In this document: positions 27,514 through 60,927 of the stretch, piece after piece
How the letters are laid out: every line of letters begins with the position of its first letter
Position numbering within the stretch: the first letter of the stretch is position 1
Assembly (NCBI GenBank): GCA_030615205.1
Contig: JAUWZS010000001.1
Location: 209,492-273,491, forward strand
Direction of reading: 5' to 3'
Length of the DNA: 64,000 nt
DNA from: Candidatus Aenigmatarchaeota archaeon
Lineage (GTDB): Archaea > Aenigmatarchaeota > Aenigmatarchaeia > CG10238-14 > SCSR01
Position numbers and translations under genes: made by a program
The notes under the pieces: model-generated
The model's database searches: none
What the model saw: only the letters and a program-made list of their open reading frames with translations
Told to the model about the DNA's origin: nothing

Positions 27514-27653
27514 TGCGGGAGGTGGGATTCGAACCCACGAAGGCACTAAGCCACAGGGTTTCTTATTTAGCTTGGTTTTCATCATCTTTTCATCTGCGCT
27601 TAAGATGTATAATCTTAAGCCCTGCGCCATCGACCAGACTAGGCGACCCCCGC
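27514..27653 (-). tRNA. tRNA-Leu(UAA), class II, with ~53-nt intron at the canonical 37/38 position
   Basis: Hand fold: acceptor GCGGGGG/CUCCCGC, anticodon stem CAGGG...CCCUG, loop CUUAAG-[intron]-A, long variable arm UGGCUUAGUGCCUUC, T arm GUGGG-UUCGAAU-CCCAC. Confidence 0.75.
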
Positions 27654-30251: not shown

Positions 30252-30360
30252 TGGACCGACCGGGACTCGAACCCGGAGCCTCCACCATGCCAAGGTGGCG
30301 ATCTTGGCAACTTTTTGATGAGACTTTTTCCAAAAGTTTCTACCATTGATCTATCGGCCC
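30252..30360 (-). tRNA. tRNA-Ala(GGC) with ~37-nt intron inside the D-loop
   Basis: Hand fold: acceptor GGGCCGA/UCGGUCC carrying the G3-U70 alanine identity pair. The D stem GAUC...GAUC is split by an insert containing the helix AACUUUUUG/CAAAAAGUU. Anticodon arm CCACC-UUGGCAU-GGUGG, T arm CCGGG-UUCGAGU-CCCGG. Confidence 0.75.
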
Positions 30361-32934: not shown

Positions 32935-33780
32935 CTACATTATTATGCTTGCATATCCTACAACCGCGCTCCTGTCACCGGTAATATCTGCCGAAGTGGC
33001 GTATTTCAATAATTTTCCTTTTTTCGAGCCAAGCATTTTTGCAGCAACGACTGCTGTAGCAATTCCGCCAAAACCACAAACACTCGCATTTTTTTCAATA
33101 ACGCGGTCAATAAACATCTTTTCATTAAGTCGCAAAATCGATTTTATTATATAGGTATCCACTTCTTCTGCCAATTTTTGCGGCACATAGTGTGAGAAAT
33201 CTGAACTTGCCAGAATTAACCAATTTTCTTTGCTTGATTTCACAGCGTTTGCAATGCTTTTACCAATAAATATACAGTCATCAATAAGCGCATTGTCAGC
33301 AATATCGCACGCAATACTTATCGGAACAAACTTGAAATCATCGCCAAAAACATATTGCAAAAAAGGCAATTGGACTTCTATTGAATGCTCGTTCTGGTGA
33401 GGAATTACATCATTTTCCAACAGTTCGCATTTTTCAAGCAAACGAGAAGCCATAGATTCATGTACAGTTGCAGTACCTAAAGGTGTTTTCCACAATCCGC
33501 GTTTCATAGTAGCATATTTTGATCCGAACATGTAGTGGTTTGTGCCTAATATTATAAAGTTCACTGGCTTTTTTTCGCCAAGCATAGAATAGACTTTAGC
33601 AGCAACCCATCCAGAATACATATAACCAGCATGAGGTACAACAGCTACATCAAATTTCTGTATTTTCTTTTTTTTATTCTCATCAGCTTTCTTAAAACTA
33701 GCTTCAATCTGCTTTTTCAGCCTGTTCACATCTAAATCATAAAACGTACCAGCTGCAACAGGCGGGCGCAAATATAACAT
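32935..33780 (-). CDS. MEMO1 / AmmeMemoRadiSam system protein B family
   Basis: RPPVAAGTFY...VPHAGYMYSG...HSIEVQLPFLQ...SSDFSHY. Confidence 0.8.
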   Translation of the reverse strand: MLYLRPPVAAGTFYDLDVNRLKKQIEASFKKADENKKKKIQKFDVAVVPHAGYMYSGWVAAKVYSMLGEKKPVNFIILGTNHYMFGSKYATMKRGLWKTPLGTATVHESMASRLLEKCELLENDVIPHQNEHSIEVQLPFLQYVFGDDFKFVPISIACDIADNALIDDCIFIGKSIANAVKSSKENWLILASSDFSHYVPQKLAEEVDTYIIKSILRLNEKMFIDRVIEKNASVCGFGGIATAVVAAKMLGSKKGKLLKYATSADITGDRSAVVGYASIIM

Positions 33781-34031: not shown

Positions 34032-34316
34032 ATGCGATTAATAAAGACTCCGCCATCAGCAAAATTGTATTTGCATGTAAAACCAGTAAGGTTACTTACA
34101 AGTTTGAAGGCCGGGCCCAAATACGCAACAATTTTATCGAAAGAAATAGACTGTACATATTCGCACACGGTCAAGCTGCTGGATCAATTCAAAAGATTCG
34201 GTCTTGTCGAATTCGAAAAGAAAGGAAGAATAAAAATTGTAACGCTAACAAGCCTGGGAGAAGACCTCGCGCATGCTTTTGAAGGCGTTATGATGAGGCT
34301 GAACAAGCTAAAGTGA
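34032..34316 (+). CDS. winged-helix DNA-binding protein
   Basis: 94 aa. KYATILSKEIDCTYSHTVKLLDQFKRFGLVEFEKKGRIKIVTLT is an HTH plus wing. Confidence 0.5.
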   Translation: MRLIKTPPSAKLYLHVKPVRLLTSLKAGPKYATILSKEIDCTYSHTVKLLDQFKRFGLVEFEKKGRIKIVTLTSLGEDLAHAFEGVMMRLNKLK

Positions 34317-34349
34317 GGGTTTAAATCTTTTTCTACTAATTTTTAAACC

Positions 34350-34607
34350 ATGGACGAATCAGCTTATGATGTTGGAAGATTAGGTGCAGGTGGTTGTTGC
34401 GAGATATTGGAACATCTTAGTACTGTCGATAGTGCAAGACGATGCGAGTTGATACGTAAAATAGGTATGCATGCTACAACTATTGGTAGAAGTCTAAAAT
34501 ATTTAAAAAAAGAAGGTCTTGTTGAAGAGAAAGATGGTTACCAGATAACACCAAACGGAAGGAAAGCTCTTCCCCTCATACAGAAACTGAAAAGGTATCT
34601 TCAATAA
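34350..34607 (+). CDS. winged-helix DNA-binding protein (ArsR/MarR-like)
   Basis: 85 aa. RRCELIRKIGMHATTIGRSLKYLKKEGLVEEKDGYQITPNG. Confidence 0.5.
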   Translation: MDESAYDVGRLGAGGCCEILEHLSTVDSARRCELIRKIGMHATTIGRSLKYLKKEGLVEEKDGYQITPNGRKALPLIQKLKRYLQ

Positions 34608-34662
34608 ATCTAGTTCTGAAAAAGAAAGGAAATTAAATCTTTTGCTGTTTATAACATTTAAC

Positions 34663-34950
34663 ATGGTTTTAACAGATGAACAGAGAGAATTAATTGAAAA
34701 AACAATGTTACAATTACTAGAGAGAAAGGGATGGTTTACAGCACGTGATGTGTATAAAAGATTAGAAGATATAAATCCACGCGCTATAATCGGTTTTCTC
34801 GCTTATCATGGTTATAGAGATTTAAGAGAGGAATATGGTGTTAAATCACGTCGTATAATACATATCAGTAAAAAAACAGGGCGGTATGAAAACTCTATCG
34901 AGGTCTATCATCGTAAAGACGTTTCTCCTCCAGATAGCGTTGAATACTAA
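34663..34950 (+). CDS. hypothetical protein
   Basis: The ATG at 34663 is preferred over the TTG at 34642. No family recognised. Confidence 0.4.
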   Translation: MVLTDEQRELIEKTMLQLLERKGWFTARDVYKRLEDINPRAIIGFLAYHGYRDLREEYGVKSRRIIHISKKTGRYENSIEVYHRKDVSPPDSVEY

Positions 34951-35082
34951 TTTTTTTTATAAATCCATAGTTTTCGTTTTCAATAATAAAGCTGGTCAAT
35001 AATCAAGCCCATTCTCTCTTTCTCTATTATATAATAGAATAGAGAGTGGGCTAAAATGTGATACTTGGGATATAACTACCCA

Positions 35083-35226
35083 TTAAACGATATTGTTCAA
35101 TCGCAGATAACACTTATACAAGTTTGGACACATTTGCAACCAATCATGCTAGAATGCTAGACCTGATAATCTCATGGCTGAGATTATCTCTAACACGATT
35201 GGTAATTGCTGTGATTTATCGTTTAA
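35083..35226 (+). ncRNA. candidate structured RNA (four nested helices)
   Basis: H1 35083-35091/35218-35226 (9 bp). H2 35099-35106/35209-35216 (8 bp, with one pair that is G-U only on the + strand). H3 35139-35145/35197-35203 (7 bp). H4 35165-35174/35179-35188 (10 bp, loop TGGC). No long ORF is present. Confidence 0.35.
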
Positions 35227-35252
35227 CGAGAGTCCCCCGATGCTTACGAGAT

Positions 35253-35366
35253 TTAAACGGCATTTTCTTCAACTTCTAATTGTTCGGCTAATTCACGTTT
35301 ACGCCTAGCAATAGATCGCCGATGTGCAATTCCTGTAATTTGTCGGCGGTCGCCTTTTGTTGTCAT
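35253..35366 (-). CDS. small basic protein, 37 aa (speculative)
   Basis: Own translation: MTTKGDRRQITGIAHRRSIARRKRELAEQLEVEENAV. It is divergent from the 35400 operon. It is very short, so this is weak. Confidence 0.2.
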   Translation of the reverse strand: MTTKGDRRQITGIAHRRSIARRKRELAEQLEVEENAV

Positions 35367-35399
35367 ACTTATTAATTATAGTTAGACAATTATTAACAT

Positions 35400-35537
35400 A
35401 TGAGGAAATGCGCTCAATGTGGCAAGGGAATCGAAAGGAGAAAAGGTTATATAAGACACAAAGATTTGGCGGGCAAGGTGCAAGCGATCCTCTGTTCGTT
35501 CAAATGCCATAGAAAATATAACAGAGGTAATGCGTAA
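35400..35537 (+). CDS. small zinc-finger protein, 45 aa (below ORF-track cutoff)
   Basis: Own translation: MRKCAQCGKGIERRKGYIRHKDLAGKVQAILCSFKCHRKYNRGNA. Its stop overlaps the next start (TAATG at 35535-35539), which suggests translational coupling. Confidence 0.4.
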   Translation: MRKCAQCGKGIERRKGYIRHKDLAGKVQAILCSFKCHRKYNRGNA

Positions 35538-36187
35538 TGTTGAATCAAATAATGGACTTTATGTTTAACAACATATTCTATTTTATCATTGCTGGGTTTG
35601 GCATTTGGTTCTTATTGAAATATCTGAAATTTGGCTCACGAACAAAGGTAAAAGTAATAAGTAGAGGCGAAATAGAACGATTGAAGTTTATAGAGCGCAT
35701 GAAGTTCAATGAGAGTGAAACATTCAAAGACTTTGTAGTCGGCGATCGTCTTAGAGGCAGAATTACTCATTTCAGGCAGTTTACAGTTGGCAATCCGACC
35801 AAACAATTTACTCAAATGCTGGTCAAACCGATGCTGATTCGCAAACTGAATATAGTAAATCCTGTGGCAAAGCATAAGTGCGTGCAAATAGACAGCAAGT
35901 TAGTTACATTAGATGAAAAGACAAAGGCGGTTAAAATTGTTGATGGTGTTTTTTTTGATTTTCTATTTGGAATTTATTATGATACCGTTGATGAGAAGCA
36001 GCATCTCGAAAATATTAAATCTGATAATGTGCTGAGGACGGATTACGATCAGATGGCCGGTCGGTATTGGGTAAAAGGACAGCAGCAATGCGTATATAGT
36101 CCTGAGATGGCATTGCAGCTTGCATTAAAGGAAAGAGAATTAGCCATTGAGTTGGCAAAGAAGAAAGGCAAAGCTGAAACGGTGTAA
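35537..36187 (+). CDS. membrane-anchored hypothetical protein
   Basis: N-terminal TM (IFYFIIAGFGIWFLL). The remainder is soluble with a coiled-coil tail. No family recognised. Confidence 0.5.
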   Translation: MLNQIMDFMFNNIFYFIIAGFGIWFLLKYLKFGSRTKVKVISRGEIERLKFIERMKFNESETFKDFVVGDRLRGRITHFRQFTVGNPTKQFTQMLVKPMLIRKLNIVNPVAKHKCVQIDSKLVTLDEKTKAVKIVDGVFFDFLFGIYYDTVDEKQHLENIKSDNVLRTDYDQMAGRYWVKGQQQCVYSPEMALQLALKERELAIELAKKKGKAETV

Positions 36188-36191
36188 TCCT

Positions 36192-37175
36192 ATGGGACAA
36201 GACGACTATAAGAAAAGTCCATTCCATATGGAATTTCAGCCGTTCAATGCAAGACAAATGATATACTCGCAATATGGTAAGCTGATACCTCGAAATTTTA
36301 AACCGCATTTACGGAATAATACATTACTAAGACATACATTCTATAGGCAGCACCGAAATCAAAATACATTCATACTAATTTTGGGCAATGTTAGATCGGG
36401 CAAAACTTATTTTGCGCTTAAGATGGCTGAGTTGTTTATGAAAGAGCAGGGTAAGAAGTTTAGTATTAAGAAACAATGCTCATTTGATCCTATAAAGTTT
36501 TTAAAGTGGAGTAGCACAACTGAATGTTCCTGTTATGTGTTAGATGAGATACAACTTTCTATGGGCGCAAGGGAATGGTATGATGTGCAGCATAGGATAT
36601 TTAACCAATTTGCAGATATACAGGGATTCAGGCGTAATTGTTTGTTCTTGACATTGCCCAATATCGCTTACATAGATCGTCATTTGAGATTTTTGATGAA
36701 CTACGTTGTCCGCACTTTGTATCAAAGCAAAGTGATATGGTGGAAAGTAAAAATGCGCCACGAAGTTGGAAAAGGCTGGTTGGATTATGTGGGCAGCGTA
36801 AAAGTATCGCTACCCAGCAAGGAAGTAGTTGATGATTATGAAGCTATTAAGAAAATTTTCAATGATGAGCATCTGAGAACAAGCATAGAGATCTTGGAAA
36901 ACATAGGCAAGCCAAAGAAAAGGAAGATTTCAGCATATCAGATACAACAGGCGTTTAAGCGTGGCATTATTACTGAGGAAGTATTTACTGAGAAAATGAT
37001 TGATCGTGGATTTGATGAAAGTGAAGTGGCAATAGCTATGGAGAACATGGCAAAAAGCACACAAGGGACAGCCCAATTTAGTCATACTTGCGCTAAATGT
37101 GGTGCTACTTGGCAAGGAAAGAAAGAGAATCCTCGAAGTTGTCCAAGATGTGATGCGAGGAAGTGGCGTTTATAG
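36192..37175 (+). CDS. P-loop NTPase with C-terminal zinc ribbon (packaging/Zot-like or replication ATPase, unassigned)
   Basis: Walker A ILGNVRSGKT, Walker B CYVLDEIQ, and C-terminal CAKCG...CPRCD. The ATG at 36192 comes just after the stop of the previous gene. Confidence 0.65.
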   Translation: MGQDDYKKSPFHMEFQPFNARQMIYSQYGKLIPRNFKPHLRNNTLLRHTFYRQHRNQNTFILILGNVRSGKTYFALKMAELFMKEQGKKFSIKKQCSFDPIKFLKWSSTTECSCYVLDEIQLSMGAREWYDVQHRIFNQFADIQGFRRNCLFLTLPNIAYIDRHLRFLMNYVVRTLYQSKVIWWKVKMRHEVGKGWLDYVGSVKVSLPSKEVVDDYEAIKKIFNDEHLRTSIEILENIGKPKKRKISAYQIQQAFKRGIITEEVFTEKMIDRGFDESEVAIAMENMAKSTQGTAQFSHTCAKCGATWQGKKENPRSCPRCDARKWRL

Positions 37176-37282
37176 GATTAATAGAAAAGTATATCTCTCT
37201 TGTTTTATTATATCTTTACGGCTAATTAAGAGATGACTTCCCCCACACCGCCGCCGCCGTCATTCATACCCTCTCAGGATTG

Positions 37283-37348
37283 ACCGGATAGACCGGATAG
37301 CGTCCGCTCTATCCGGTTATCTTTTCTATCCGGTCATGTTCTCTATCC
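37283..37348. repeat. ACCGGATAG repeat array (2 tandem direct + 2-3 inverted copies)
   Basis: ACCGGATAG at 37283-37291 and 37292-37300. The complement CTATCCGGT at 37309-37317 and 37326-37334. CTATCC at 37343-37348; the inverted copies are 17 bp apart. Preceded by the GC-rich tract 37238-37261. Confidence 0.85.
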
Positions 37349-37352
37349 ACTT

Positions 37353-38537
37353 TTACTGCAATTCGTCCCAACTTGGTAATGTTAATGGTTGTAATTGTCG
37401 AATTTGCACAGTAGCAGTCTTATCTTCGGTTAATAATCTACTCTTATTTAAGAATCCATATTCAGCCAATTTATTGACATTAACATAAACCCAACTTCTA
37501 CCTCTATAATTTATAGCATCAACTATATCCGGCAATTCAGCCCATTTACCTAGCTTTTTACCATCATATTCCATAGCTTTTGATTCTTTTTGCAGTTTTT
37601 TAATCGTATCTAATAACCTTTGCTGCTCTTTGGTTAAAGGGATCATAAGCGGATTTGTAGTTAATTTTTTCATACATCTTTTGGCAATGTTATAATCCTG
37701 TTCAGTTGCCAAATAAAACCCATTTTCGTCTTGCTCACGCTGGTATTGATGTAATGCAGTCGAACTTTTCATCAGATCCAAAAATCTTTTGAACTGCGTC
37801 CTCATAATAATATTTTTCGGCATAAATTTTACAATCTTTTTTGCGTATGGGATTTTAACCTTTATTCTTCGCAATTTTCTCAATGCTTTCGTTATCGCTG
37901 GATCATATTCATCTGTTAATCCATTTTCTTCCATCTGTGCCTGTCGTTCCATTATTGCCTCAGTTTGTTTTATACTTGTATCAAGATTCACAAGTCCGTA
38001 TCTTCGCACATTATCTTTGCTTGGCGTTGAACTTGCCAAAGTATGAATTAAAATCGGTTTGCCATTTACAATCAGATCCTTTGGTTTGCCATCTATAACA
38101 ATAGTCGCCTTACTGCCGCTTGATGCAAAAACTTTCATTACATCACAATTTAAAATCCTTTGGCTTGTATCCTCGAAATAAATAACTGTGCCGTCCCAAG
38201 TCCATTCGGGTTCGAGTTCTGCGTTATGCCAATAGTTCAATGCCTTTTCTGTTATCCGTGTTCGTGTTTCATAAACTTTTTTTGGCAAAATATTACCAAT
38301 GTTGGATACAACCCAATCCTTACCGGCGCCTGTTTCATCATTCACGATCAGATTATAGCTTGTGAGCTTTGCATTTTCTACCAACCGCCCATTCATACAC
38401 AAAAATATAACTTCACAAGTAGCTTTTTCGCCGACAATCTTTTTCTCAAACTCTTTTATAATGTTATCAAAAAAATCAGGCGACAATAAATATTGGTCAG
38501 CCATATCTTCTACAAATTGCTCATTTATTTCTGGCAT
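37353..38537 (-). CDS. hypothetical protein with degenerate P-loop (possible SF3/D5-like helicase) and C-terminal wHTH-like region
   Basis: IVNDETGAGKDWVVSNIGNILP resembles a Walker A with D in place of S/T. VIYFEDTS is a possible Walker B. The assignment is tentative. Confidence 0.3.
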   Translation of the reverse strand: MPEINEQFVEDMADQYLLSPDFFDNIIKEFEKKIVGEKATCEVIFLCMNGRLVENAKLTSYNLIVNDETGAGKDWVVSNIGNILPKKVYETRTRITEKALNYWHNAELEPEWTWDGTVIYFEDTSQRILNCDVMKVFASSGSKATIVIDGKPKDLIVNGKPILIHTLASSTPSKDNVRRYGLVNLDTSIKQTEAIMERQAQMEENGLTDEYDPAITKALRKLRRIKVKIPYAKKIVKFMPKNIIMRTQFKRFLDLMKSSTALHQYQREQDENGFYLATEQDYNIAKRCMKKLTTNPLMIPLTKEQQRLLDTIKKLQKESKAMEYDGKKLGKWAELPDIVDAINYRGRSWVYVNVNKLAEYGFLNKSRLLTEDKTATVQIRQLQPLTLPSWDELQ

Positions 38538-38767
38538 TTTTTCACACCCTTCAATCCAAATTTTACATCTTGTTGGATCTCATCTCTAACTTCTATGGCT
38601 TTGAGAATCAGCATTTCATTATAAGTAGTATCAAGTCCCTTTTTGCGATAGACAAAAATCATTTTCCGTTTTCTCGCTATGTAGTTATCAATAAGTTGTT
38701 TCCAATCATTTGGTAGAATTTTCATTTTCCGTAGTCTTTTAATGCCTATACTTGTAATAACACACAT
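38525..38767 (-). CDS. hypothetical protein
   Basis: 80-aa ORF whose 3' end overlaps the start of the downstream gene by 13 nt (operon-like). Confidence 0.4.
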   Translation of the reverse strand: MCVITSIGIKRLRKMKILPNDWKQLIDNYIARKRKMIFVYRKKGLDTTYNEMLILKAIEVRDEIQQDVKFGLKGVKKCQK

Positions 38768-38779
38768 AGATAATCACAA

Positions 38780-39022
38780 CTATACTTTGCTTTGCGCTTT
38801 GTGAGGCGGAGGTTTGGCTTTCCTCCGCTTTCCTAATCCTATAAACATTTCTTTCAAGCGCAGTTGGGCTTTTCTGTATTGCTTATTGTAATAAAAAAGC
38901 GTAGATATGGGATACCCGAATAATTGGTTTATTTCTTTTATAGAATAGCCGACCATCAACATCAAATAAATTTCAGGTCTACTGCGCCGTCCTGTTTGCT
39001 TGAACTTTTTCTTAGGATTCAT
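38780..39022 (-). CDS. HTH DNA-binding protein (Hin/sigma-r4-like)
   Basis: MLMVGYSIKEINQLFGYPISTLFYYNKQY is a helix-turn-helix, flanked by basic tails. Confidence 0.45.
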   Translation of the reverse strand: MNPKKKFKQTGRRSRPEIYLMLMVGYSIKEINQLFGYPISTLFYYNKQYRKAQLRLKEMFIGLGKRRKAKPPPHKAQSKV

Positions 39023-39100
39023 ATGTAGACATTTGTCAATGCATCTATTTATAAGTTTAAAATTTCTTTTTTCTTATATGGCAAGAATTGATGATCGCAT

Positions 39101-39631
39101 ATGGCAAACATAGATGACATAACGGCTTTAATTGACAAGTATCCGCATAGATTTTGGGCTATATTTTTGGGCTGTATGCACAAGCCAACCCATATGAGCA
39201 AGGTTGATAAGCGGTTTGGATTCGCCAAGCGCAGCTTATACCAGCACAACATAGTAAAAGAAATGGTTCGGCTGGGCGTATTGAAATTTTATCCAAGTGA
39301 TAACAGAAAATTCAAGCTATATTTTAGTCAAGTGGATTGGCTATATTCTATGAACGGAATAAAATCTAAAAAATTGTATAAAGTCCTAAATGAACCAGCC
39401 GTAAGAGAAGCATTTGACTTTGATAAATTCAATGTAGAACCTGCGATACTAAAAATTTGGTCAGAGAATGTATTTTATGCCATAGTCCAAATCATAGCAG
39501 CTTGTTTATTTTGGAAACGCACACGGGAAAGGGATCAACTGATTTTTACTATGATCCCACATTTTTTGAGGGATAGTCATATAGACACTTTCGTTATGGC
39601 AATAATGATATTGAGAAGTGAGGGAAAATGA
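39101..39631 (+). CDS. hypothetical protein, possible N-terminal wHTH
   Basis: 176 aa. KPTHMSKVDKRFGFAKRSLYQHNIVKEMVRLGVLKF. Confidence 0.4.
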   Translation: MANIDDITALIDKYPHRFWAIFLGCMHKPTHMSKVDKRFGFAKRSLYQHNIVKEMVRLGVLKFYPSDNRKFKLYFSQVDWLYSMNGIKSKKLYKVLNEPAVREAFDFDKFNVEPAILKIWSENVFYAIVQIIAACLFWKRTRERDQLIFTMIPHFLRDSHIDTFVMAIMILRSEGK

Positions 39632-39780
39632 TTAAAGAAATAAGCTACGTTCTTGATGTTTTTACTTCACCCACTTTGACTTTCAGCAAGATTATGATGT
39701 GGTTTCTTATTCTGTTTAGTGCAGTCGCTATAATAATGATTTATGACAATTATAAAAAATATCATAAAAAGAAAAGATAG
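39628..39780 (+). CDS. small single-TM protein, 50 aa (below ORF-track cutoff)
   Basis: Own translation: MIKEISYVLDVFTSPTLTFSKIMMWFLILFSAVAIIMIYDNYKKYHKKKR. ATGA overlap with the upstream stop. Confidence 0.35.
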   Translation: MIKEISYVLDVFTSPTLTFSKIMMWFLILFSAVAIIMIYDNYKKYHKKKR

Positions 39781-39983
39781 CATGTTTGGATTATGTTATC
39801 TTTTGTTGAACTATTGCTTATGTATTCGTAGGATAGGTTTTTGGTATTGATGCCCTTGTTTGATCAAGACCAAACGTTCTCTCTCGTATGTATAAAAAGT
39901 ATAAATTAGACTTAGTTTCCTTGCCGCATAGGTCATTTTCTATATATAGAAAGTATAAATTTGCGTAAAAGAATTAATAAAAT

Positions 39984-40202
39984 ATGACTAAATTAATTAT
40001 AAAGTTTAAGAAAATTTTACCCGGAATTTATCTGCCTAGAAAAGTAGAAATTGACGCTACAGAAGATGGCTATGATTGGCACGAATTACCATTACTTGTT
40101 AAAATTGCAGATTTTTGTTACTCATTAGTTCCTAATTATGATGGAAAACTCACAAAACTACTTTTAGAAAGCGAAAATGCGCCACAAATAAAGGAGGACT
40201 GA
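39984..40202 (+). CDS. hypothetical protein
   Basis: 72-aa ORF preceded by a duplicated AAAGTATAAATT TATA-like box. Confidence 0.35.
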   Translation: MTKLIIKFKKILPGIYLPRKVEIDATEDGYDWHELPLLVKIADFCYSLVPNYDGKLTKLLLESENAPQIKED

Positions 40203-40208
40203 GCAAAT

Positions 40209-40556
40209 ATGAAATTAATACCATATCTTTTGGTGGGGAACCACCCAAAAACAGCTAAATTGAAGCAAAGAATAGTACAAATAGTCAAGATATTGAAGGA
40301 AAACCAAGGCAAAATCGAGGCAGAAGAGCTTGAAAAGAAGTTGGGCATCTCTCGAACAACGAATCCCAGCCTGTTTTACAAGCCACTGGCGTCCATGCGT
40401 AAGTGGGACTTGGTCCAATCGCATCGAAAAGTGGAAATTAATGCAGAAGGAAAGAAGAAATTCCGGACAACTTACGAACTAACACCAGGGCTTTTCTACC
40501 ACTATATAGAACGTACGCTGATTGAGCTGGCCAAAAAAGAGATCGAAATGGTGTAA
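40209..40556 (+). CDS. winged-helix DNA-binding protein
   Basis: IVQIVKILKENQGKIEAEELEKKLGISRTT...WDLVQSH. Confidence 0.45.
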   Translation: MKLIPYLLVGNHPKTAKLKQRIVQIVKILKENQGKIEAEELEKKLGISRTTNPSLFYKPLASMRKWDLVQSHRKVEINAEGKKKFRTTYELTPGLFYHYIERTLIELAKKEIEMV

Positions 40557-40983
40557 AACGTTAAAAACCTTTGATTTTCTTGAATTTTTGTTAATTTTTA
40601 GTATTTTATAGCAGAAATGCGCCACTGCTAAGCAGAGACTGAGCATTTGTGAGAGTTTGTGTTTAATTTTGTTGCGTGATAAATATTATATACTAAAGAA
40701 TATATATTGATTAGTTTTGCCTATTATCGAATAGATAGACTCTATTGTTGCTGTTTTATAGCCGATATAGCCCTCTTTTTAGCGTTTTTATGGCCTTTCT
40801 TTGTCAATTGGGTAGGCTAAAATAAGCAGATAAATATTTAAAATTAAGTAGGTTTGTATATAGAAATAGACTATATAATATATTAAATAAAATATACTAC
40901 ATAAAATAATGTGAGATAAATATAATATATAAGATATATTATATAAAAAGATAGTGTGTGATATATAGTTTGTTATAAATAAA

Positions 40984-41155
40984 AGTGAGAATTTTGGTTG
41001 ATCTGGTAGGAGTGAGATTTATGGTGTAGCAACATCGAGGTATGGCGCATTTAGTGGATTTTGGTGATCAGAGTGTTAAAGTGAAAGTGAGAGTTCGTGG
41101 CACAGTTTTGGCTAAACTAGCAAGTGAGTTTACAGGACTTTGAGTAAATGTGAGG
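40984..41155 (+). repeat. dispersed AGTGAGA(N)TT direct repeats (iteron-like)
   Basis: AGTGAGA at 40984, 41011 and 41086. AGTGAGT at 41123 and TGTGAGG at 41149. Related AGTGGAT and AGTGTTA lie between them. The array sits downstream of a very AT-rich tract. Confidence 0.6.
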
Positions 41156-41201
41156 TATTCCGAACGCAAATAAATTTAAGCTTCAAAATTTAATAAATTT
41201 T

Positions 41202-41918
41202 ATGGGTTTAAAGCAAAAATTAAAGCGGATATTTCGAATAGGCGCCAAAGATGAAGCGCTTCAAAGCGATTTAAAGCGCTCGAAAGCGCTCGAAAGCGCT
41301 GCAGATTTAGAAGATAAATACCCTTATCAAACTCCAACAGAACCTACCGAACTCTCACGGCCTCTCGAAATTCAAAAGGATTCATTGCAATTGGGAATCG
41401 CAGCTGGCTACACAGGTAAATTTATACGGGAAATTGAGCGTTCTTTGGGCAGAATCGAGACACATATGGTCTCTAAGGATTGGTTTTCATCTAAATTCGA
41501 GGATCGGTCACCCGAATTAATAGAACTTTTGAGCAACATTAAAACACTCATCCAAGAGCATGATAATACTGTCTCAAAGCGATTTAAAGCGCTCGAAAGC
41601 GCTTCAAATCGCATACAATCTATTGCAACCAAAGCCCCAAAACCTATTAGACAGAAACTGATGAAAGAAGTAGAAACTATTGAAGCAGCTCTGCCTCTTA
41701 CTTCAAAGATGAGAAAACTTGTTTCTGTTGTAAAAGATTCTGGAAAATTAAGTTATGATGAACTGTGTACAAAACTCAATGTCAGCCGATCATCACTTCG
41801 CGGTCTTCTTGCTAATACTATGAAACGAACAAATGAAATCGAACGATTCTCTGTTGACGGCAAAGGATGGGTGCGCTATAAACATCCAAAAACCACACAA
41901 ATTCCTGATTTTCCATAA
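41202..41918 (+). CDS. hypothetical protein with C-terminal wHTH; contains embedded 10-bp-phased AAGCGCT repeats
   Basis: C-terminal LSYDELCTKLNVSRSSLRGLLANTMKR...GKGWVRYK. The N-terminal and middle parts are helical. Confidence 0.5.
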   Translation: MGLKQKLKRIFRIGAKDEALQSDLKRSKALESAADLEDKYPYQTPTEPTELSRPLEIQKDSLQLGIAAGYTGKFIREIERSLGRIETHMVSKDWFSSKFEDRSPELIELLSNIKTLIQEHDNTVSKRFKALESASNRIQSIATKAPKPIRQKLMKEVETIEAALPLTSKMRKLVSVVKDSGKLSYDELCTKLNVSRSSLRGLLANTMKRTNEIERFSVDGKGWVRYKHPKTTQIPDFP

Positions 41919-41966
41919 AATATTTTCTATAAAACAGTAAAAAGTCACTCAAAACACTAGAAATTC

Positions 41967-42269
41967 CTAAATTTTTGGCACTTTCCTTTCACTCTTATTT
42001 TCAATCTTTTCTTTAACTGCTAAAAATCTGAAAACCCCGTTCAAATCTGTACCAGGTTTTAATCTGATCATGTGCACATTGAATGGTTCCATTGTCTGGG
42101 TTTCCACAAACATTGCTAAATGTTTATCAATAAGGCGGGAAACGGTTTTATGGTGTAGATTGCACCGTCTAGATATCTCTCTTATCCAAAGCCAGCCACC
42201 TTCTGCCTGCTTTAGGCATCTAACGATTTTTATTACGTTTTCAGCTGCATCTTTTCGCATTTTTACCAC
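41967..42269 (-). CDS. winged-helix DNA-binding protein
   Basis: GGWLWIREISRRCNLHHKTVSRLIDKHL. Confidence 0.45.
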   Translation of the reverse strand: MVKMRKDAAENVIKIVRCLKQAEGGWLWIREISRRCNLHHKTVSRLIDKHLAMFVETQTMEPFNVHMIRLKPGTDLNGVFRFLAVKEKIENKSERKVPKI

Positions 42270-42439: not shown

Positions 42440-42558
42440 AGCGGAGTGGAGCAGTCAGCGACGTATTCGCCTGCAATGGAGTGCTCGTCGGGCTCATATA
42501 AAAGCTAAAAGCTTTTTGAGAGACCCGAAGGTCCTAGGTTCAAATCCTAGCTCCGCTA
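42440..42558 (+). tRNA. initiator tRNA-Met(CAU) with two introns (D-loop and canonical 37/38)
   Basis: Hand fold: A1-U72 acceptor AGCGGAG/CUCCGCU. The D stem GAGC/GCUC encloses a ~30-nt loop containing the hairpin GCGA-CGUAU-UCGC. Anticodon stem UCGGG/CCCGA with three G-C pairs, loop CUCAUA-[~24 nt]-A. T arm CUAGG-UUCAAAU-CCUAG. Confidence 0.7.
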
Positions 42559-43081: not shown

Positions 43082-45772
43082 TTAAAATAAAAAGCTTACT
43101 AATACAACTGCAGCAATGAGCATTATTTGAATTATTCCGAAAAAGCCAAAATCCGGCAGGCTTATAAGACCTCCTTTAACAATGAGTGTCTGATCAGATT
43201 CTATCTTGTTAGGACTTTGTGACGTATCTGACGATATTGAAACATCTGCAGTAGCAGTTTGTTCAGATGATAATACATTAACACCGACATAAATCTGTTG
43301 AACGTCGTTTGTGCTTAGCGACGCTGTGGTCTGGGCACCATTTTCGATAATTAATAGTCCTGGATCGGTTGCAACAACACTAATTCCATATGTATCACTC
43401 AAGGTACCATTGTTTTTAACAATAATGACAAGGTCCTGTCCTTCACCAACTACTAAACTCATACTACTCGGCATAAAGACTTCAAATGAAATCGGATAAA
43501 ATATTCTAGTGACTTCAACATATGTACCTGGGTCAATAGGATCAAAGGCTTTGCAATATATTGTATTTGGGTTTGTTCTCAGCTCACCACCCGGATCTGG
43601 TGTCATATCGTATTCTGCTGGTGGTAATAATATTGTACATCCTCCGCCACCAGGCTCACTAGAATATGGGAAAGGATTGCAGTTCCAGAGACCATTTAAT
43701 TCACACTCTACATTCACTGTAGCGCCTCCATACTCAGTGACCCAGTTTATATTAATTTGATCTAGAGTAGTCGAGAAGTGAAGGGATCTAATTTCTAGGG
43801 GTTCAGGTGGACTTTCCTCACTTCCCCAACTTCCGTGGGTTGGTTCTGGAGAGGCGTATTTTCTAAGTGTCATGGCATCCCAGTAACTAACATCTCCATC
43901 ATAGAGCAAATTAATCTGAAAACTTCCAAAGCTTGATAGATAAGGAGAAGTGCGGCTGCCAGCACCATTGCCATCACAAGTCGCAGTATAATCACTTCCA
44001 GTAATCTTAACTTCAAAATCATGCCATCCAGAAGCTCTATCGACACCTAATGAATATCCAGTTCCAACTTCCCCAGATTGCCATTCGACTATTGAATAAA
44101 CAGTTCCATCCTGAAATTGTTTATTATATTCTGTATCAACACCTAAACTGAGAGTGGGAGCGGAAGCGGTGCAATCCGCACCACCACTAATAAATAACCT
44201 GAATCTTACACCAGAATCTGATGGATTATTTTCTTTGAAATGGATACTAAGAATCCCAGTATTTCCTGTACTTCCCATATCATGGCAGAGACTGTCACCA
44301 GCTTCAATCTCTACAGAGCTAGTCCCATGCCATTGTTCAGATGCAACAAGGGTTGGACTTCCTCCAGTGGTCCATTGACTAAGGTCAGTTTCGAAGTCAT
44401 CAAAAAAATCAAATGTAGCACTGCCATCACTAGTCGTTGTAGCACCACTATTTCCATAGTACATGTAAATTGTTCGATCCGCCGTACTCAAATCATCTCG
44501 AACTTCAACCCAGAATGTTGCTGTGCTCGCGTCGTACGACTCCAACCAATAATCCAATTCTGTGGCTCCATCGTTATCTGTAAATCGTAGATCATCCGGC
44601 CAGTTCTGAGCATGACCATTCAAATAAACATCCTCACCGCTGTCCGTGCCACTTCCGCTATGTACAACGATTTTGACTTGATAGTTAGTATCAGCACCAG
44701 CAGCACTGTTGATTACGTGACTTTTGCGGTAGTTAAAACCAGAAAGCCATGAAGGTTCAGGTGCAATTTCTTCACTTTCCCAACTTCCATGGGTCGGTTC
44801 TGGAGACGTGTATTTTCTCAAAGTGATATTATCGAATTCTCCCTGAGTTCTTCTGAATGATAAAGATATATCTAAACCACCAGGTTGGGTTCCAATCGAT
44901 GCCTGACATGTTGAGTTCGAGTCAAATAGTGAACCATCTATATACCATGCACATCCTGGTATTGTGCTACCATTTACCACAAGTTTCCACTGATACCATT
45001 GATAGTACCACGGTTGAATGGTATCTTCAAGCGCTTGAATCACATTGTCATACTTCACACTAAATCCTCTTGTATAACTACCTCCAGACCTGTAGTATCG
45101 CATATAAAAATCATCAGTATCATAGAATTCAATCCTTCCACTTCTGTAAAAAGTCCCAAAAATACCTATATCTGGTTTTAATGCAGCTTCAAGTACATAT
45201 CCTTGACCAATAAAATTTTCAGTCAACTTTGTGTCATAATATAAATAAGTAAAAAAATCACCAGCCGTAGGACCTTTCACAACTTTAGTCCCATCCATAA
45301 CAACTGTCCACGATTCTGAAGATGACCAGCGACTCGGTGCTTGACCCACAGTTTCGTCTTCAAAATCCTCGTAAAAATCGTATGTTTCTGTTGCATTGCT
45401 CGTTGAAGAAACAGAAGGATTTCCATAGTACATGTAAATTGTTTTTGTGCTTGAAGCTAGTATGTTTGGGACATTTACCCATACTGTCGCACTTGTACTT
45501 GGGGTATAACTTTCAACCCAATACGGAACCAAAGTTGTTTCATCACTATCTGTAAATCTAAGATCGCTAAAATCAGAGTTCATATCGCTATCATAAATGA
45601 CAATAATTTTAACTGGATAGTTTGTTAAATCGCTTCCTGAGTTCTCTGTAATATCAACTGGTCTTCTGAAATTCCAATCTATATCAAACCACGTCCCTTG
45701 GGAATAGACTAAAGGAGAAAGAAATAAAAATACAGTAAAAAAAGTGAAGAAGAATATTATTTTCTTAATCAT
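43082..45772 (-). CDS. large secreted surface protein with two DUF2341-like modules, LamG/jelly-roll-like modules and a C-terminal TM anchor
   Basis: N-terminal signal/TM MIKKIIFFFTFFTVFLFLSPLVYS. Two modules begin W(N/F)YR(R/K) and end IYMYYGN...FDFF(E/D)DFE. Linkers RKY(T/A)SPEPTHGSW(E/G)SEE. C-terminal LPDFGFFGIIQIMLIAAVVLVSFLF. Confidence 0.75.
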   Translation of the reverse strand: MIKKIIFFFTFFTVFLFLSPLVYSQGTWFDIDWNFRRPVDITENSGSDLTNYPVKIIVIYDSDMNSDFSDLRFTDSDETTLVPYWVESYTPSTSATVWVNVPNILASSTKTIYMYYGNPSVSSTSNATETYDFYEDFEDETVGQAPSRWSSSESWTVVMDGTKVVKGPTAGDFFTYLYYDTKLTENFIGQGYVLEAALKPDIGIFGTFYRSGRIEFYDTDDFYMRYYRSGGSYTRGFSVKYDNVIQALEDTIQPWYYQWYQWKLVVNGSTIPGCAWYIDGSLFDSNSTCQASIGTQPGGLDISLSFRRTQGEFDNITLRKYTSPEPTHGSWESEEIAPEPSWLSGFNYRKSHVINSAAGADTNYQVKIVVHSGSGTDSGEDVYLNGHAQNWPDDLRFTDNDGATELDYWLESYDASTATFWVEVRDDLSTADRTIYMYYGNSGATTTSDGSATFDFFDDFETDLSQWTTGGSPTLVASEQWHGTSSVEIEAGDSLCHDMGSTGNTGILSIHFKENNPSDSGVRFRLFISGGADCTASAPTLSLGVDTEYNKQFQDGTVYSIVEWQSGEVGTGYSLGVDRASGWHDFEVKITGSDYTATCDGNGAGSRTSPYLSSFGSFQINLLYDGDVSYWDAMTLRKYASPEPTHGSWGSEESPPEPLEIRSLHFSTTLDQININWVTEYGGATVNVECELNGLWNCNPFPYSSEPGGGGCTILLPPAEYDMTPDPGGELRTNPNTIYCKAFDPIDPGTYVEVTRIFYPISFEVFMPSSMSLVVGEGQDLVIIVKNNGTLSDTYGISVVATDPGLLIIENGAQTTASLSTNDVQQIYVGVNVLSSEQTATADVSISSDTSQSPNKIESDQTLIVKGGLISLPDFGFFGIIQIMLIAAVVLVSFLF

Positions 45773-56157: not shown

Positions 56158-57052
56158 ACATATAAAAATGGCTAAGCAAGAAGTAATTCAGAGAGATATT
56201 GAAATTTTTCAAGAAGGTCTTAAAAATGGTGAAGAGGGTGGAGTAATGGAGCGAGAGGAGATTTTGCGTACGTTAGTAAGTTGTGGTCTTAGCGAATACG
56301 AGTCCAAAGTGTATTCTTCTTTGGTCTTTTTGGGGCCTTCTAAAGCAGGGACTATAAGCCGAGAGTCAAAAGTCCCCCAATCAAAAATATACGAAGTTTT
56401 AGATCAACTTACGAATAAGCAGCTTGTCGAGGTTTTTGATGGTAGGCCGAAAGAATTCAAAGCAACCGAGCCGGAGATCGCACTGAAAAACCTTTTAGAA
56501 GAAAAAATGAATGAAATAGACACATTAAAATCAAAAGTACAATCAATGAGCAACTTTCTAAAACCTCTGAAGAAGGATCAAGTCCTCGGAGGCGTGTGGA
56601 CGATAAAAGGTGAAAAATTCAAAGAATTTTTCAACAAAACCGCCGAGATGTTGGACAGAAGTGAAAAATATGTCTATGCAATTACACGTGATTTTTCTCG
56701 ATCAGCTTCTATGGCAGGAGCAGTAAAAAAATGTATAAAGCGTGGAGTAAAAATTCGTGTGATAGGCATGGAAAAAATAAGCAAGAGAAATTATTATAAA
56801 GCGTTGTGGTACAAAGAGCAAGGAATAAACCTTAGATTTTTCGAAACGAAAGTTCACCCAAGGATAATAGTTGTCGATGGAAAAGAAATCCTGCTACGCT
56901 TGGATTATAACCCACAAAAACGCAATAGGTTCCGATTCGATTCGCTATGGTCAGAAGACGTCTCGCTAGTCACTGTGATCGATAATTATGTTAAAAACAT
57001 GTGGGGAAATGCAAACACGATTAATTTCAGGAAAATTCCAATCTCTTTATAG
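56150..57052 (+). CDS. trmB: TrmB-family transcriptional regulator
   Basis: GLSEYESKVYSSLVFLGPSKAGTISRESKVPQSKIYEVLDQLTNKQLVEV is the TrmB wHTH, followed by a C-terminal PLD-like effector domain. Start ATG at 56150 (8-nt overlap with the upstream gene); the longer alternative is 56120. Confidence 0.8.
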   Translation: MSKHIKMAKQEVIQRDIEIFQEGLKNGEEGGVMEREEILRTLVSCGLSEYESKVYSSLVFLGPSKAGTISRESKVPQSKIYEVLDQLTNKQLVEVFDGRPKEFKATEPEIALKNLLEEKMNEIDTLKSKVQSMSNFLKPLKKDQVLGGVWTIKGEKFKEFFNKTAEMLDRSEKYVYAITRDFSRSASMAGAVKKCIKRGVKIRVIGMEKISKRNYYKALWYKEQGINLRFFETKVHPRIIVVDGKEILLRLDYNPQKRNRFRFDSLWSEDVSLVTVIDNYVKNMWGNANTINFRKIPISL

Positions 57053-57064
57053 GAATTTTAAAAA

Positions 57065-58579
57065 TTAGCTCGTTATCTGTATAATCGGTTTGCTCAAAGT
57101 CGTATTTGTTCCCATGTGCTCAACTGCCACGCGATGCTCTCCTTTCACAATACGGAGCGTGCCATTCAAATCGACATTTGAATATGGTATTACCAGCTTC
57201 TGTTTTTTTCGATTAGTCCTGCTAATTTTTATATTATCAAAGCTTGTGACCCCGTCCGGATTTGCTAGTACTATGGCGGCATTTGGTGTTTTTGCACCTA
57301 TGCTCTGCGAGCCGCTTTCAATTACCTTCTTCGTACTAAGTTCATATTCAGCCGCGATTTCATCCGAGCTTAGAGAAACATTCCAGATTTTTACTTCGTC
57401 GATAATGCCGTTGAAATATCCCTGAGTACTGTTACCTATTGATACTGGTGAAGTAGTATTAGTAATAGCACCTGTCAATGGGTCATTATTGCTTTCAATA
57501 CCGTTGATATAAACTCTTTGGTGAGCACCATCATAGGTAAATGCTACATGTGTCCATTGATCATTTGGAACTGTATTATCAGAAGAATAAGTTGCATAAG
57601 TAGCTCCCTGACGATTAACCCAAGCACCAATTTTATTAGGAGTATCTATAGTTACTTCGAATGTGTTTGCTTTTACTACTAAACCAATATTTGGGCTTTG
57701 GTCAGATGGAGATTTAACCCATAATGCTACTGTAATTTCACTAAAATTTAAACTCGGCGAATCAGAAACTTTAACATAATCATTCACACCATCAAACTTC
57801 AGACAGCTTAATCCAGCTTTGCAATCAGAATAGCTTTGCCAGCCACTTGTCGAATTCCCAGTAGTGTTCATATCCGTTAGTGTTCCATTGTTCAAATTAC
57901 CGGACCAATCATATGCTTTGCTGCCTGTCCGGTTGTCAAACGTCCAAAATCCGACGAGCCGCTCTGGGTTCGCAGGGAGCACGAATATTTGTCCGCCTGT
58001 TCCGCCACTCGAATTGTATATATCGCCAGAGAATTTGTAATTTTCAAGCGTGCTAAGATTATGATAAGCTAGGCCACCGTTGCCCTTGTATTTGTAATTA
58101 TCAACAATCCATTGACCAGATGTGTTTGTCCACACAGGATCAGCTTTGCTATCTTCAACATACCAGTTGAAAAAATCTAGGAAAACACTGCCACGTTCGA
58201 TGTATATGTCACCTTTTCTTCCTGTCAAGTACATGTGTTCAGACGGGTCATATGTGAATACGAGCGAATCAGTCGCTGCATTGATACTGTACTCACCTCC
58301 AGAAACAGAGACTGACACAGTCCGCTTGGAGCCTTCTGCTTCAGATGAAACTTCCTTTATAACACTGTTCAACAAATTCAAATTCTGAAAAGCGTCTGTT
58401 ATTACTGAGGAATCTTCAACGCGGTTGAATATGGGGTTTACAACTCCCAAAACCAGAGTTAGCATCAATACACCAAGCAGAATTGTTAAAACAGATGCGA
58501 TAAATGGACTAATTCCCTTTCGGTTCAAACTCATGCTAGACTCCCTGCTCAACAACTTTTCTATATAAATAGATTTCAT
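57065..58579 (-). CDS. archaeal type IV pilin-like protein fused to a LamG/concanavalin-like domain
   Basis: Class III signal peptide NRKG-ISPFIASVLTILLGVLML. The C-terminal half has LamG-like strands (LKFDGVNDYV...WTHVAFTYDG...VYINGI...IDEVKIWN). Confidence 0.75.
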   Translation of the reverse strand: MKSIYIEKLLSRESSMSLNRKGISPFIASVLTILLGVLMLTLVLGVVNPIFNRVEDSSVITDAFQNLNLLNSVIKEVSSEAEGSKRTVSVSVSGGEYSINAATDSLVFTYDPSEHMYLTGRKGDIYIERGSVFLDFFNWYVEDSKADPVWTNTSGQWIVDNYKYKGNGGLAYHNLSTLENYKFSGDIYNSSGGTGGQIFVLPANPERLVGFWTFDNRTGSKAYDWSGNLNNGTLTDMNTTGNSTSGWQSYSDCKAGLSCLKFDGVNDYVKVSDSPSLNFSEITVALWVKSPSDQSPNIGLVVKANTFEVTIDTPNKIGAWVNRQGATYATYSSDNTVPNDQWTHVAFTYDGAHQRVYINGIESNNDPLTGAITNTTSPVSIGNSTQGYFNGIIDEVKIWNVSLSSDEIAAEYELSTKKVIESGSQSIGAKTPNAAIVLANPDGVTSFDNIKISRTNRKKQKLVIPYSNVDLNGTLRIVKGEHRVAVEHMGTNTTLSKPIIQITS

Positions 58580-58621
58580 TTTTCCAGTAAATTAGTATTG
58601 CGATGTTAGTAGATGTAAACG

Positions 58622-59308
58622 CTAGTGTATGTTGATGGGTTTCTGGTATTTTTTTATATGTGTGGCGTCTTGGCTCACTAATGAGGCGTAGAAAAAGCCG
58701 ACATAGACATCCTTGTTCGTTTTTGTTGTTACTGTTATGCTTTCGGTTATGCTAGTTGCTGCATCACCGGCTGTGCTGTTGTACGTCAAGTTCAGCTCAT
58801 ATTGCGTGCCTGGGGTTATTGTAAAATTGGTATCCCACCTTTCATAATTTATAATATCGCTCTTAGTGTCAGATTGGCCGACAATGGTAAGGTTCGCGTC
58901 TATCGTACTGTCAATCATGTTTATCAGGCTCACGTTCATTGCGTTTATTGTTTTGTTCGATATGACGCCGATGTATAAAAATGTGAAGCTCATAGAATGC
59001 TCTGCCATTTTACGCTCAGTGAAATTCGCAAAATCGAAAACATTTTTAGTTATATTTTGCGGGTCATAGTAGGAAAATCTCAATGTGTTGTTTAGCTCGT
59101 TCACTATATTTTCAAAAATATCATTCTCAAATCTTACTTCTAAAATTTCTTTCTCTTTCTTAGCACCCGGACTTGCAGTGTTAAACTTAATAATGACTAA
59201 TGAAGCAACTATGACAACTGCAGCGATTAAAAACATTTGGCCTTTTGATTTTCTTTTTCTTTTCTTCGCTTTCAATATATTATCGGATAAGGTCCACAAA
59301 TTAATCAA
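58622..59308 (-). CDS. type IV pilin-like protein
   Basis: Basic stretch then KGQ-MFLIAAVVIVASLVII (class III signal-like), followed by a sequon-rich beta domain. Confidence 0.55.
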   Translation of the reverse strand: MINLWTLSDNILKAKKRKRKSKGQMFLIAAVVIVASLVIIKFNTASPGAKKEKEILEVRFENDIFENIVNELNNTLRFSYYDPQNITKNVFDFANFTERKMAEHSMSFTFLYIGVISNKTINAMNVSLINMIDSTIDANLTIVGQSDTKSDIINYERWDTNFTITPGTQYELNLTYNSTAGDAATSITESITVTTKTNKDVYVGFFYASLVSQDATHIKKYQKPINIH

Positions 59309-59696: not shown

Positions 59697-59714
59697 CTTT
59701 AAGGTCGCCTCTTA

Positions 59715-60908: not shown

Positions 60909-60927
60909 TATTCTACTGAATCTTATC

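Follow-up and report, generated by a model that had tools for sequence, protein, structure and literature searches.

What is the DNA that separates a conserved run of housekeeping genes from the initiator tRNA gene in this low-GC archaeal chromosome? In the window, that is, the whole 64,000-nucleotide (nt) stretch analysed here (G+C content (GC) 0.37; all positions are those of the window), ribosomal-protein genes, GluRS and a Memo-family gene are followed by a block, 34032-42269, that holds about 15 short open reading frames (ORFs) in alternating strand blocks according to the ORF list. A preliminary description of the sequence, which counted about 18 such ORFs from Memo to tRNA-iMet, took the entire block for one integrated plasmid- or virus-like element of unrecognised type, lying next to that tRNA. 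A mobile insertion is indeed present, but it is confined to 35008-39868; roughly 2.4 kb at the right end of the block, and its first left ORF, are host DNA. The alternating arrangement is as described, but syntenic orthologues in relatives reveal that it is not one unit. Nor is the type unrecognised, as the replication protein (Rep) belongs to the pME2001-related family PF27228, and the ATPase to the family of SSV1 B251. We lean towards regarding the insertion as an integrated plasmid-virus hybrid of the pSSVx/SRCE kind, possibly a virus satellite, in the chromosome of an Aenigmatarchaeota-like (DPANN) archaeon. This reading is favoured because a plasmid replicon joined to a spindle-virus ATPase module, without capsid genes, is the architecture of pSSVx and the SRCEs.

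The att site was recognised solely through comparison with relatives, whose contigs were obtained by scanning species-representative genomes with the Memo protein; several of these are labelled Candidatus Aenigmatarchaeota. A blastn comparison of the block with the relatives gave two short non-coding matches, 34940-35034 and 39863-39953, and both align to overlapping positions of one contiguous stretch (L013, 6359-6500; L011, 1-96; L014, 8593-8635). The insertion (4,861 base pairs, bp) interrupts an intergenic site whose two halves adjoin each other in these three relatives; this is the empty site that the preliminary description had proposed to look for. In the alignments, the host-like sequence ends with ...GGTCAATAATCAAG at 35007 and restarts with ATCAAGACCAAACGTTCTCTC from 39863, and about 47 of the 48 nt beside the core in L011 are identical to the left half-site. 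Of all the fetched loci, L011, L013 and L014 are the only ones to contain the pattern ATCAAGNNCAANCGTTCTCTC, each of them a single time. Removal of the 4,861 bp restores the host site exactly, and both junctions are clean; the predicted empty site reads ...GGTCAATAATCAAGACCAAACGTTCTCTC..., and the predicted circular junction ...CCCTTGTTTGATCAAGCCCATTCTCTC.... Conserved synteny among relatives, which the preliminary description held would speak against a mobile element, was found for 34032-34316 and the right-end ORFs, and not for 35008-39868.

The two att sequences form an imperfect direct repeat of about 40 nt with about 71% identity by local alignment, a score equalled by 8 of 500 shuffles. 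A generic repeat search over the block returned no long direct repeats. The DNA close to the junctions is non-coding and contains no integrase gene or fragment thereof. No tRNA or other Rfam family was found at the att site, either here or in L013. A tRNA as the att site was considered and rejected: tRNA-iMet lies 2.6 kb beyond attR, and no segment of a tRNA is duplicated in the block. What was targeted is an intergenic site that is conserved and not part of a tRNA. The preliminary description was right that no tRNA-derived att duplication exists, while the att-type junction itself had escaped it.

The Rep of the element is a 394-amino-acid (aa) protein with more than 135 homologues at 40-55% identity, which carry PF27228 as a precomputed Pfam domain; the assignment was made via the precomputed hit on an identical protein, P0001. 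Some of the homologues are fused to primase domains of the Prim-Pol (PF09250) or zf-CHC2 (PF01807) type. A profile of 48 homologues aligned to residues 150-533 of the 804-aa ORF of pMTBMA4/pME2001 (hhalign probability 92%, E 6e-7, 332 columns), and pME2001 is a functional replicon that has been used in shuttle vectors (PMC8609365). In tblastn, CHC2/toprim primases of bacterial plasmids were found to carry the same domain C-terminally, with 23-27% identity to their helicase part; no match to the 394-aa protein was found in phage records. Three PF27228-bearing contigs have terminal overlaps indicating circles (5.1 kb, with a tyrosine integrase; 7.7 kb; and 10.9 kb), one homologue belongs to an element that is inserted between host genes and adjoins an integrase, and IMG/VR contigs of about 30 kb carry further ones.

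An AlphaFold2 model of the 394-aa protein (pLDDT 88) was compared with the Protein Data Bank (PDB) by Foldseek, and the 50 best matches were all MCM subunits (E from 2e-9, TM-score about 0.5), with both the AAA+ domain and the C-terminal winged helix being covered. These alignments extend over the AAA+/winged-helix part of targets of about 570-750 aa, such that the TM-score normalised to the target is 0.27-0.38. PDB sequence searches with profiles of the Rep, ATPase and 216-aa families gave nothing significant; the C-terminal part of the Rep had weak matches to winged helix-turn-helix (wHTH) proteins. A cellular MCM helicase was rejected as its identity, as the protein has no N-terminal OB-fold/zinc domain, is 394 aa long versus about 650-700, and has a Walker A motif, GAGKD, unlike the MCM type. 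The preliminary description correctly placed ETGAGKD in this protein but called the protein degenerate. GAGKD is invariant across the family (G72, K73 and D74), and it is therefore a family trait, not a sign of decay.

Four exact copies of ACCGGATAG lie beyond the rep stop (37283-37334), two followed by two inverted, and none occurs elsewhere in the 64 kb. The hairpin of this array has a z-score of -7.1, which bears out the inverted-repeat array of the preliminary description. Arrays with a 9-nt period and inverted copies follow the rep stop in L064 and L066, and inverted repeats stand there in L063 and L001. While the repeat sequences differ between elements, the rep-iteron layout, judged from these sequences, is conserved. 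Because relatives have the same layout after rep, the array probably represents the replication origin.

The 327-aa ATPase has 13 close homologues, in all of which the Walker A motif GNVRSGKT (G65, K71) and the Walker B motif VLDEIQ (D118, E119) are invariant; these motifs and the C-terminal CxxC...CxxC were already read in this protein by the preliminary description. A full HMMER scan with the ATPase collected 1,752 cluster representatives at E <= 0.001, and a scan of viral_contigs returned nothing. In tblastn, the ATPase matched the 'DnaA-like' ATPase of the Haloferax lemon-shaped virus LSV-48N (E 1e-11). A profile of distant relatives (A4) recovered the window ATPase (1.5e-48), the LSV-48N protein (4.7e-69) and SSV1 B251 (8.4e-17). 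Moreover, 44 of the 49 distant relatives match phrog_5484, as does SSV1 B251 itself (5e-101), and a 56%-identical homologue, P0131, matches it at 7e-4. The window ATPase alone had no significant match to phrog_5484, and another profile, A1, aligned with the single B251 sequence over the P-loop alone, so that the link needed the broader A4 profile. On these comparisons the link to the B251 family, although indirect, appears strong. The distant relatives carry a C-terminal helix-turn-helix (HTH) or sigma-70 region 4 in place of the zinc ribbon.

The best PDB fold match of the ATPase is the Zot N-domain 2r2a (E 5.5e-4, TM-score normalised to the target 0.44), and several archaeal-virus proteins, e.g., ATV ORF286 (BFVD), are also among its fold matches. 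Pfam Zot was found in 28 of the 49 distant relatives at E <= 0.01 (best 1.2e-06), with P0170 reaching 18.7 bits against a cut-off of 20.3. The window protein lacks a transmembrane segment, and its C-terminal end is formed by a zinc ribbon. Because the links to the B251 family are much stronger, it was not assigned to Zot or inovirus pI.

The 216-aa protein encoded upstream has one hydrophobic segment (residues 8-30) and no match in Pfam, PHROGs or the PDB. Its homologues (30-61% identity) accompany the ATPase in every related contig long enough for the neighbouring genes to be seen (L002, L005-7, L008-10, L054, L056 and L060). Apart from the element, this pair is found only on metagenome contigs that resemble genomes of spindle-shaped viruses. 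The Rep and ATPase genes co-occur in no other fetched locus; among all Rep- or ATPase-bearing loci, the genes shared with the element are those themselves and a zinc-ribbon match in L066. All three large ORFs of the element are full-length relative to their homologues.

The contigs concerned (L002, 1-11119; L056, 1-9182; L060, 1-11543; and L005-L007) have a GC of about 0.32-0.35, and have in common the B251-type ATPase, the 216-aa-like membrane protein, a wHTH protein, a capsid-like two-helix protein of 71-108 aa with a Cys-rich paralogue, and large proteins that are either secreted or Cys-rich membrane proteins. In the larger contigs, L002, L056 and L060, the two hydrophobic helices of the 71-108-aa proteins are terminal, an arrangement also seen in SSV1 VP3, and the secreted proteins are 536-723 aa long. 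PHROGs gave no match for the capsid-like small proteins. By gene content and hydrophobic topology, these contigs look like genomes of an undescribed group of spindle-shaped viruses. The positions of all features in and around the insertion are collected in Table 1.

Table 1. Features of the insertion, its target site and the adjoining host genes (window positions)
Feature	Position	Strand	Remarks
Memo-family gene	32935-33780		left flank; Pfam E 8e-70
94-aa wHTH protein	34032-34316		host gene; 65-91% aa identity in eight relatives, invariably adjoining Memo
Left half of target site (attB left arm)	34940-35007		core ATCAAG at 35002-35007; blastn 74-79% identity
attL	35002-35042	+	core ATCAAG and about 35 nt imperfectly repeating attR
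Long imperfect palindrome, left junction	35006-35052		DNA hairpin -11.8 kcal/mol, z = -5.1; 0 of 200 shuffles fold as well
Non-coding control region	35053-35399		second hairpin 35165-35188, GATAATCTCA/TGAGATTATC, z = -4.4
Possible 37-aa basic ORF (putative)	35253-35366	-	divergent from ATPase operon; read from sequence
45-aa CxxC...CxxxxH zinc-finger protein	35400-35537	+	weak zf-C2H2/DUF2116 hits, E about 0.05
216-aa protein, N-terminal transmembrane helix, conserved C-terminal helix	35537-36187	+	constant partner of the ATPase
327-aa P-loop ATPase, SSV1 B251 ('DnaA-like' AAA+) family, C-terminal zinc ribbon	36192-37175	+	alternative TTG start at 36147
Probable origin	37277-37348		2 + 2 inverted copies of ACCGGATAG directly after rep stop
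394-aa replication protein	37353-38537	-	PF27228 (MTBMA_p00010_2nd); MCM-like AAA+ ATPase, C-terminal winged helix
80-aa protein	38525-38767	-	overlaps rep start by 13 nt; no family hit
80-aa putative HTH protein	38780-39022	-	first gene of rep operon; weak hits to Terminase_5 (E 0.035) and phrog_534 (E 0.018)
176-aa ORFan	39101-39631	+	no family hit
50-aa single-transmembrane protein	39628-39780	+	start overlaps preceding stop (ATGA, 39628-39631)
attR and right half of target site	39863-39953		core ATCAAG at 39863-39868; 84-88% identity to L013, L014, L011
115-aa wHTH protein	40209-40556		host gene; 85% identity in L013, 85% in L014, 64% in L016
238-aa protein	41202-41918		host gene; 50% and 44% identity to syntenic orthologues
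100-aa wHTH protein	41967-42269		host gene; 82% and 79% identity to syntenic orthologues

The element is a mosaic of two modules, the first a plasmid replicon and the second a translationally coupled operon. Module 1 would comprise the HTH gene, the 80-aa gene, the 394-aa Rep and the ACCGGATAG iteron origin. The winged helix of the Rep may bind the ACCGGATAG iterons, and its AAA+ ring may then melt and unwind the DNA; since this copy of the Rep is without the primase domain found in some homologues, a host primase would be needed. Module 2, as predicted from its genes, consists of the zinc-finger protein, the membrane-anchored 216-aa protein and the B251-family ATPase with its zinc ribbon. By analogy with pSSVx and the SRCEs, the most likely role of this module is use of the virion-assembly machinery of a helper: it would let the plasmid exploit the assembly of a helper spindle-shaped virus, and thereby act as a virus satellite. 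The satellite behaviour is what we infer from the same analogy. Integration is envisaged to proceed by recombination at the short core ATCAAG. As no recombinase gene is present in the element, the enzyme would have come in trans from the host or from a helper virus.

Comparison with known systems shows how far this analogy goes. pSSVx of Saccharolobus islandicus, a plasmid-virus hybrid and satellite of the fusellovirus SSV2, is a plasmid replicon carrying homologues of B251 and A154 (PMC9608457). Like the element, it is about 5 kb long, has no capsid gene, and combines a plasmid replication module with two neighbouring genes that spindle-shaped viruses also have, the B251-type AAA+ ATPase gene being one of the two. 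However, the Rep of pSSVx is a primase-helicase of the pRN type rather than an MCM-like PF27228 protein, and its partner gene is A154, to which the 216-aa protein is not detectably related. In addition, pSSVx is episomal in a Sulfolobales host, whereas the copy of the element described here is integrated in a DPANN host. The SRCEs are circles of 2.7-9 kb that carry a spindle-virus AAA+ ATPase and/or the major capsid protein in addition to plasmid Reps; they were proposed to be satellites, and also occur in Nanohaloarchaeota (bioRxiv 10.1101/2025.02.15.638363). The element resembles them in size, in carrying a spindle-virus AAA+ ATPase besides a replication protein of plasmid type, and in that some of them have DPANN hosts. 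Yet the SRCEs were described as circular episomes with either rolling-circle Reps or archaeo-eukaryotic primase-helicases, some encode the capsid protein, and their setting is hypersaline. In contrast, the element is part of a chromosome, its Rep is helicase-only and comes from a different family, and its host is a low-GC Aenigmatarchaeota-like lineage.

The other two comparisons concern single parts of the element. pME2001/pMTBMA4 of Methanothermobacter marburgensis and other PF27228 replicons share with it the homologous Rep and the small replicon, and the relatives of 5-11 kb, which are apparently circular, have iterons after rep as the element does. Nevertheless, the pME2001 protein (804 aa) has extra N- and C-terminal regions relative to the 394-aa Rep, and pME2001 neither carries a B251-type ATPase nor is integrated, both of which are features of the element. 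pSSVi and other tRNA-targeting integrative archaeal plasmids and proviruses are likewise small chromosomal insertions between direct repeats, but they use a tyrosine or SSV-type integrase and a tRNA target, while the element has no integrase, an intergenic target and a perfect repeat of 6 nt.

Several observations weigh against a pSSVx/SRCE-like hybrid. The perfect core is just 6 nt long and the repeat flanking it is imperfect. No hit to Phage_integrase or a related family was obtained for any ORF of at least 45 aa in 34032-42269. An exact-match search of viral_contigs failed to find the predicted circular junction, and no circular form was found. The GC of the element (0.364) is close to that of the host (0.372); its tetranucleotide usage, on the other hand, is moderately deviant (2.3 standard deviations above the window mean, with 5 of 119 sliding windows equally or more deviant), and the compositional deviation that the preliminary description had suggested looking for is thus present in the latter measure only. 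The small proteins of L002, L056 and L060 are called capsid-like by their size and hydrophobic topology only; none of them has a homologue in the window, where neither a helper virus, a capsid gene nor a packaging signal was seen. On integrase and capsid, the preliminary description was right in recognising none. Homology of the 216-aa protein to SSV1 A154 was rejected (hhalign probability 0.2%), as was homology to CDS0022 of LSV-48N, the ORF upstream of the ATPase. Finally, B251-type ATPases have been implicated in both replication and packaging and are annotated as 'DnaA-like replication initiation protein' (PMC9608457), and hence module 2 may serve replication.

This last point leads to the strongest rival, which we take seriously but consider unlikely: an ordinary integrated cryptic plasmid with no link to viruses, whose ATPase and partner serve its own replication or segregation, e.g., as an origin-binding initiator or as a loader for the MCM-like helicase. 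The PHROGs label of the family is 'DnaA-like replication initiation protein', and an ATPase with a DNA-binding C-terminal domain does resemble an initiator. A complete rep-plus-iteron cassette and the lack of a capsid gene would also be expected of such a plasmid. However, the ATPase and the PF27228 rep are together in no other fetched locus, indicating that they are not an obligate replication pair. On larger contigs the ATPase pair accompanies virus-like structural genes without the PF27228 rep, and the ATPase family is itself a hallmark of spindle-shaped viruses.

That the insertion is what remains of a decayed spindle-shaped provirus, its structural genes and integrase lost, appears quite improbable. 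Such a remnant would account for the imperfect att repeats, the lack of integrase and capsid genes, and an ATPase and partner in common with putative virus contigs; but both ends are clean, taking out the 4,861 bp recreates the exact host site, every large ORF is full-length, the rep and origin are not seen on the virus-like contigs, and the size falls within the 2.7-9 kb range of the SRCEs. That the whole of 34032-42269 is one element of unrecognised type tied to tRNA-iMet or, weaker still, a lineage-specific non-mobile gene island has hardly any probability left, since its many small wHTH ORFs, its lack of housekeeping families, the nearby tRNA and the variability among relatives of the interval from 34316 to att are outweighed by the synteny of four ORFs and the long AT-rich intergenic region in L013, L014 and L016, by the lack of a duplicated tRNA segment in the block and by the much narrower boundaries that the split target site gives.

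The integrated plasmid-virus hybrid, to return to the preferred reading, can be phrased more specifically, although in this form it becomes doubtful. The element would be the first satellite, integrated yet devoid of an integrase, of a family of spindle-shaped viruses that is still undescribed and infects Aenigmatarchaeota or related DPANN archaea, and L002, L056 and L060 would be members of that family. It would park in a non-tRNA site by means of a helper or host recombinase and, on infection by the helper, would be excised, replicate from its own Rep and iterons, and be packaged via the shared ATPase/membrane pair.

Pfam and PHROGs searches of all ORFs of the block gave weak wHTH hits for small ORFs, and none for the two large proteins. 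The palindrome at the left junction may be a recombination or regulatory site. The stop codon of the 45-aa ORF overlaps the start of the 216-aa ORF (TAATG, 35535-35539); this overlap and the ATGA further downstream, both pointed out in the preliminary description, follow from the ORF coordinates. When the 176-aa ORF was searched against 5.8 billion proteins, an identical sequence was the sole match. The 50-aa protein has one hydrophobic segment, and is thus without the two-helix topology of the capsid proteins.

Two further ORFs, 34350-34607 and 34642-34950, lie outside the insertion, within an interval that differs in every relative. This interval, from the 94-aa wHTH gene to att, contains different small ORFs in each (window 34317-34940; L011, 97-3469; L013, 6500-8637; L014, 8635-9560), and ranges in length from 0.6 kb in the window up to 3.4 kb in L011. 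It could represent debris of repeated integrations at one site. In L011, the closest relative (78-91% protein identity), the contig ends about 30 nt past the att core (L011, 1-34); occupied and empty sites may coexist in that population and have broken the assembly there.

Synteny was examined by tblastn of all window ORFs against the contigs of the relatives. These keep the gene order of the window for the ORFs at 34032-34316, 40209-40556, 41202-41918 and 41967-42269 (44-91% aa identity), and the MazG gene is likewise conserved in L013. Neither the four ORFs nor the AT-rich intergenic region is mobile DNA; both belong to the conserved part of the host chromosome. The intergenic region (40557-41201) has the same layout in L013 and L014, consisting of a ATGCGCCA motif, an AT-rich tract and six invariant GTGAG motifs; because of this conservation, its features belong to the host, including what the preliminary description had regarded as the AT-rich iteron region of the element. 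The AT-rich repeat tract is about 100 nt long and the GTGAG motifs are 25-45 nt apart. The ATGCGCCA motif is also present at 40170-40185, just upstream of the 115-aa wHTH gene. The region could be regulatory or even a replication origin. A structured RNA, which had been suggested for the block, was rejected for the GTGAG-rich part (40960-41170), where the fold has a z-score of +1.35. The 238-aa host gene contains two copies (41251-41309 and 41564-41622) of a repeat with a 10-nt period, AAGCGCTCGA, which encodes reiterated peptide motifs of the K-A-L-E-S-A type; similar repeats occur in L013.

The tRNA at 42440-42558, found by Rfam and missed by ARAGORN, is a tRNA-Met (CAT) with an A1:U72 end, and hence of the initiator type, as the preliminary description had recognised. 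Its identity was established by alignment with intronless orthologues, one of which was typed as tRNA-Met(CAT) by ARAGORN. It has two introns, one of about 20 nt in the D-loop region and one of 24 nt after the anticodon, neither of which is present in the L013 and L014 orthologues. Over-long Rfam tRNA hits at 17240-17335, 27514-27653 and 30252-30360 were missed by ARAGORN, and probably bear introns too. Further to the right, an 896-aa DUF2341 surface protein (43082-45772) beside tRNA-Val is without a counterpart at the same position in L013; over 126 aa it is 36% identical to a putative adhesin of 536 aa encoded by L002 (9463-11073). By tetranucleotide usage, the window deviates most at 57000-64000, where a surface protein longer than 1,000 aa is encoded, as are pilin-like proteins that have signal sequences of the class-III type.

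To our knowledge, hardly any mobile elements are known from DPANN archaea outside the Nanohaloarchaeota. The locus provides a cleanly delimited one, with exact junctions and an intact replicon composed of rep and a probable origin, and its gene pair ties it to contigs resembling a new group of spindle-shaped viruses. What is unusual about the element is that it sits in a chromosome although it has no integrase, and that its target is not a tRNA. To the extent that the hybrid reading holds, the element joins a known kind, that of plasmid-virus hybrids and satellites, in a host lineage that has been little studied. Genetic tools could draw on the PF27228 rep-plus-iteron cassette as a candidate minimal replicon, and the conservation of the rep-iteron layout offers a simple rule for locating origins in this plasmid family. 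If the satellite reading is true, then the life-style of pSSVx and the SRCEs would reach a third archaeal lineage, and would also include a chromosomally integrated state.

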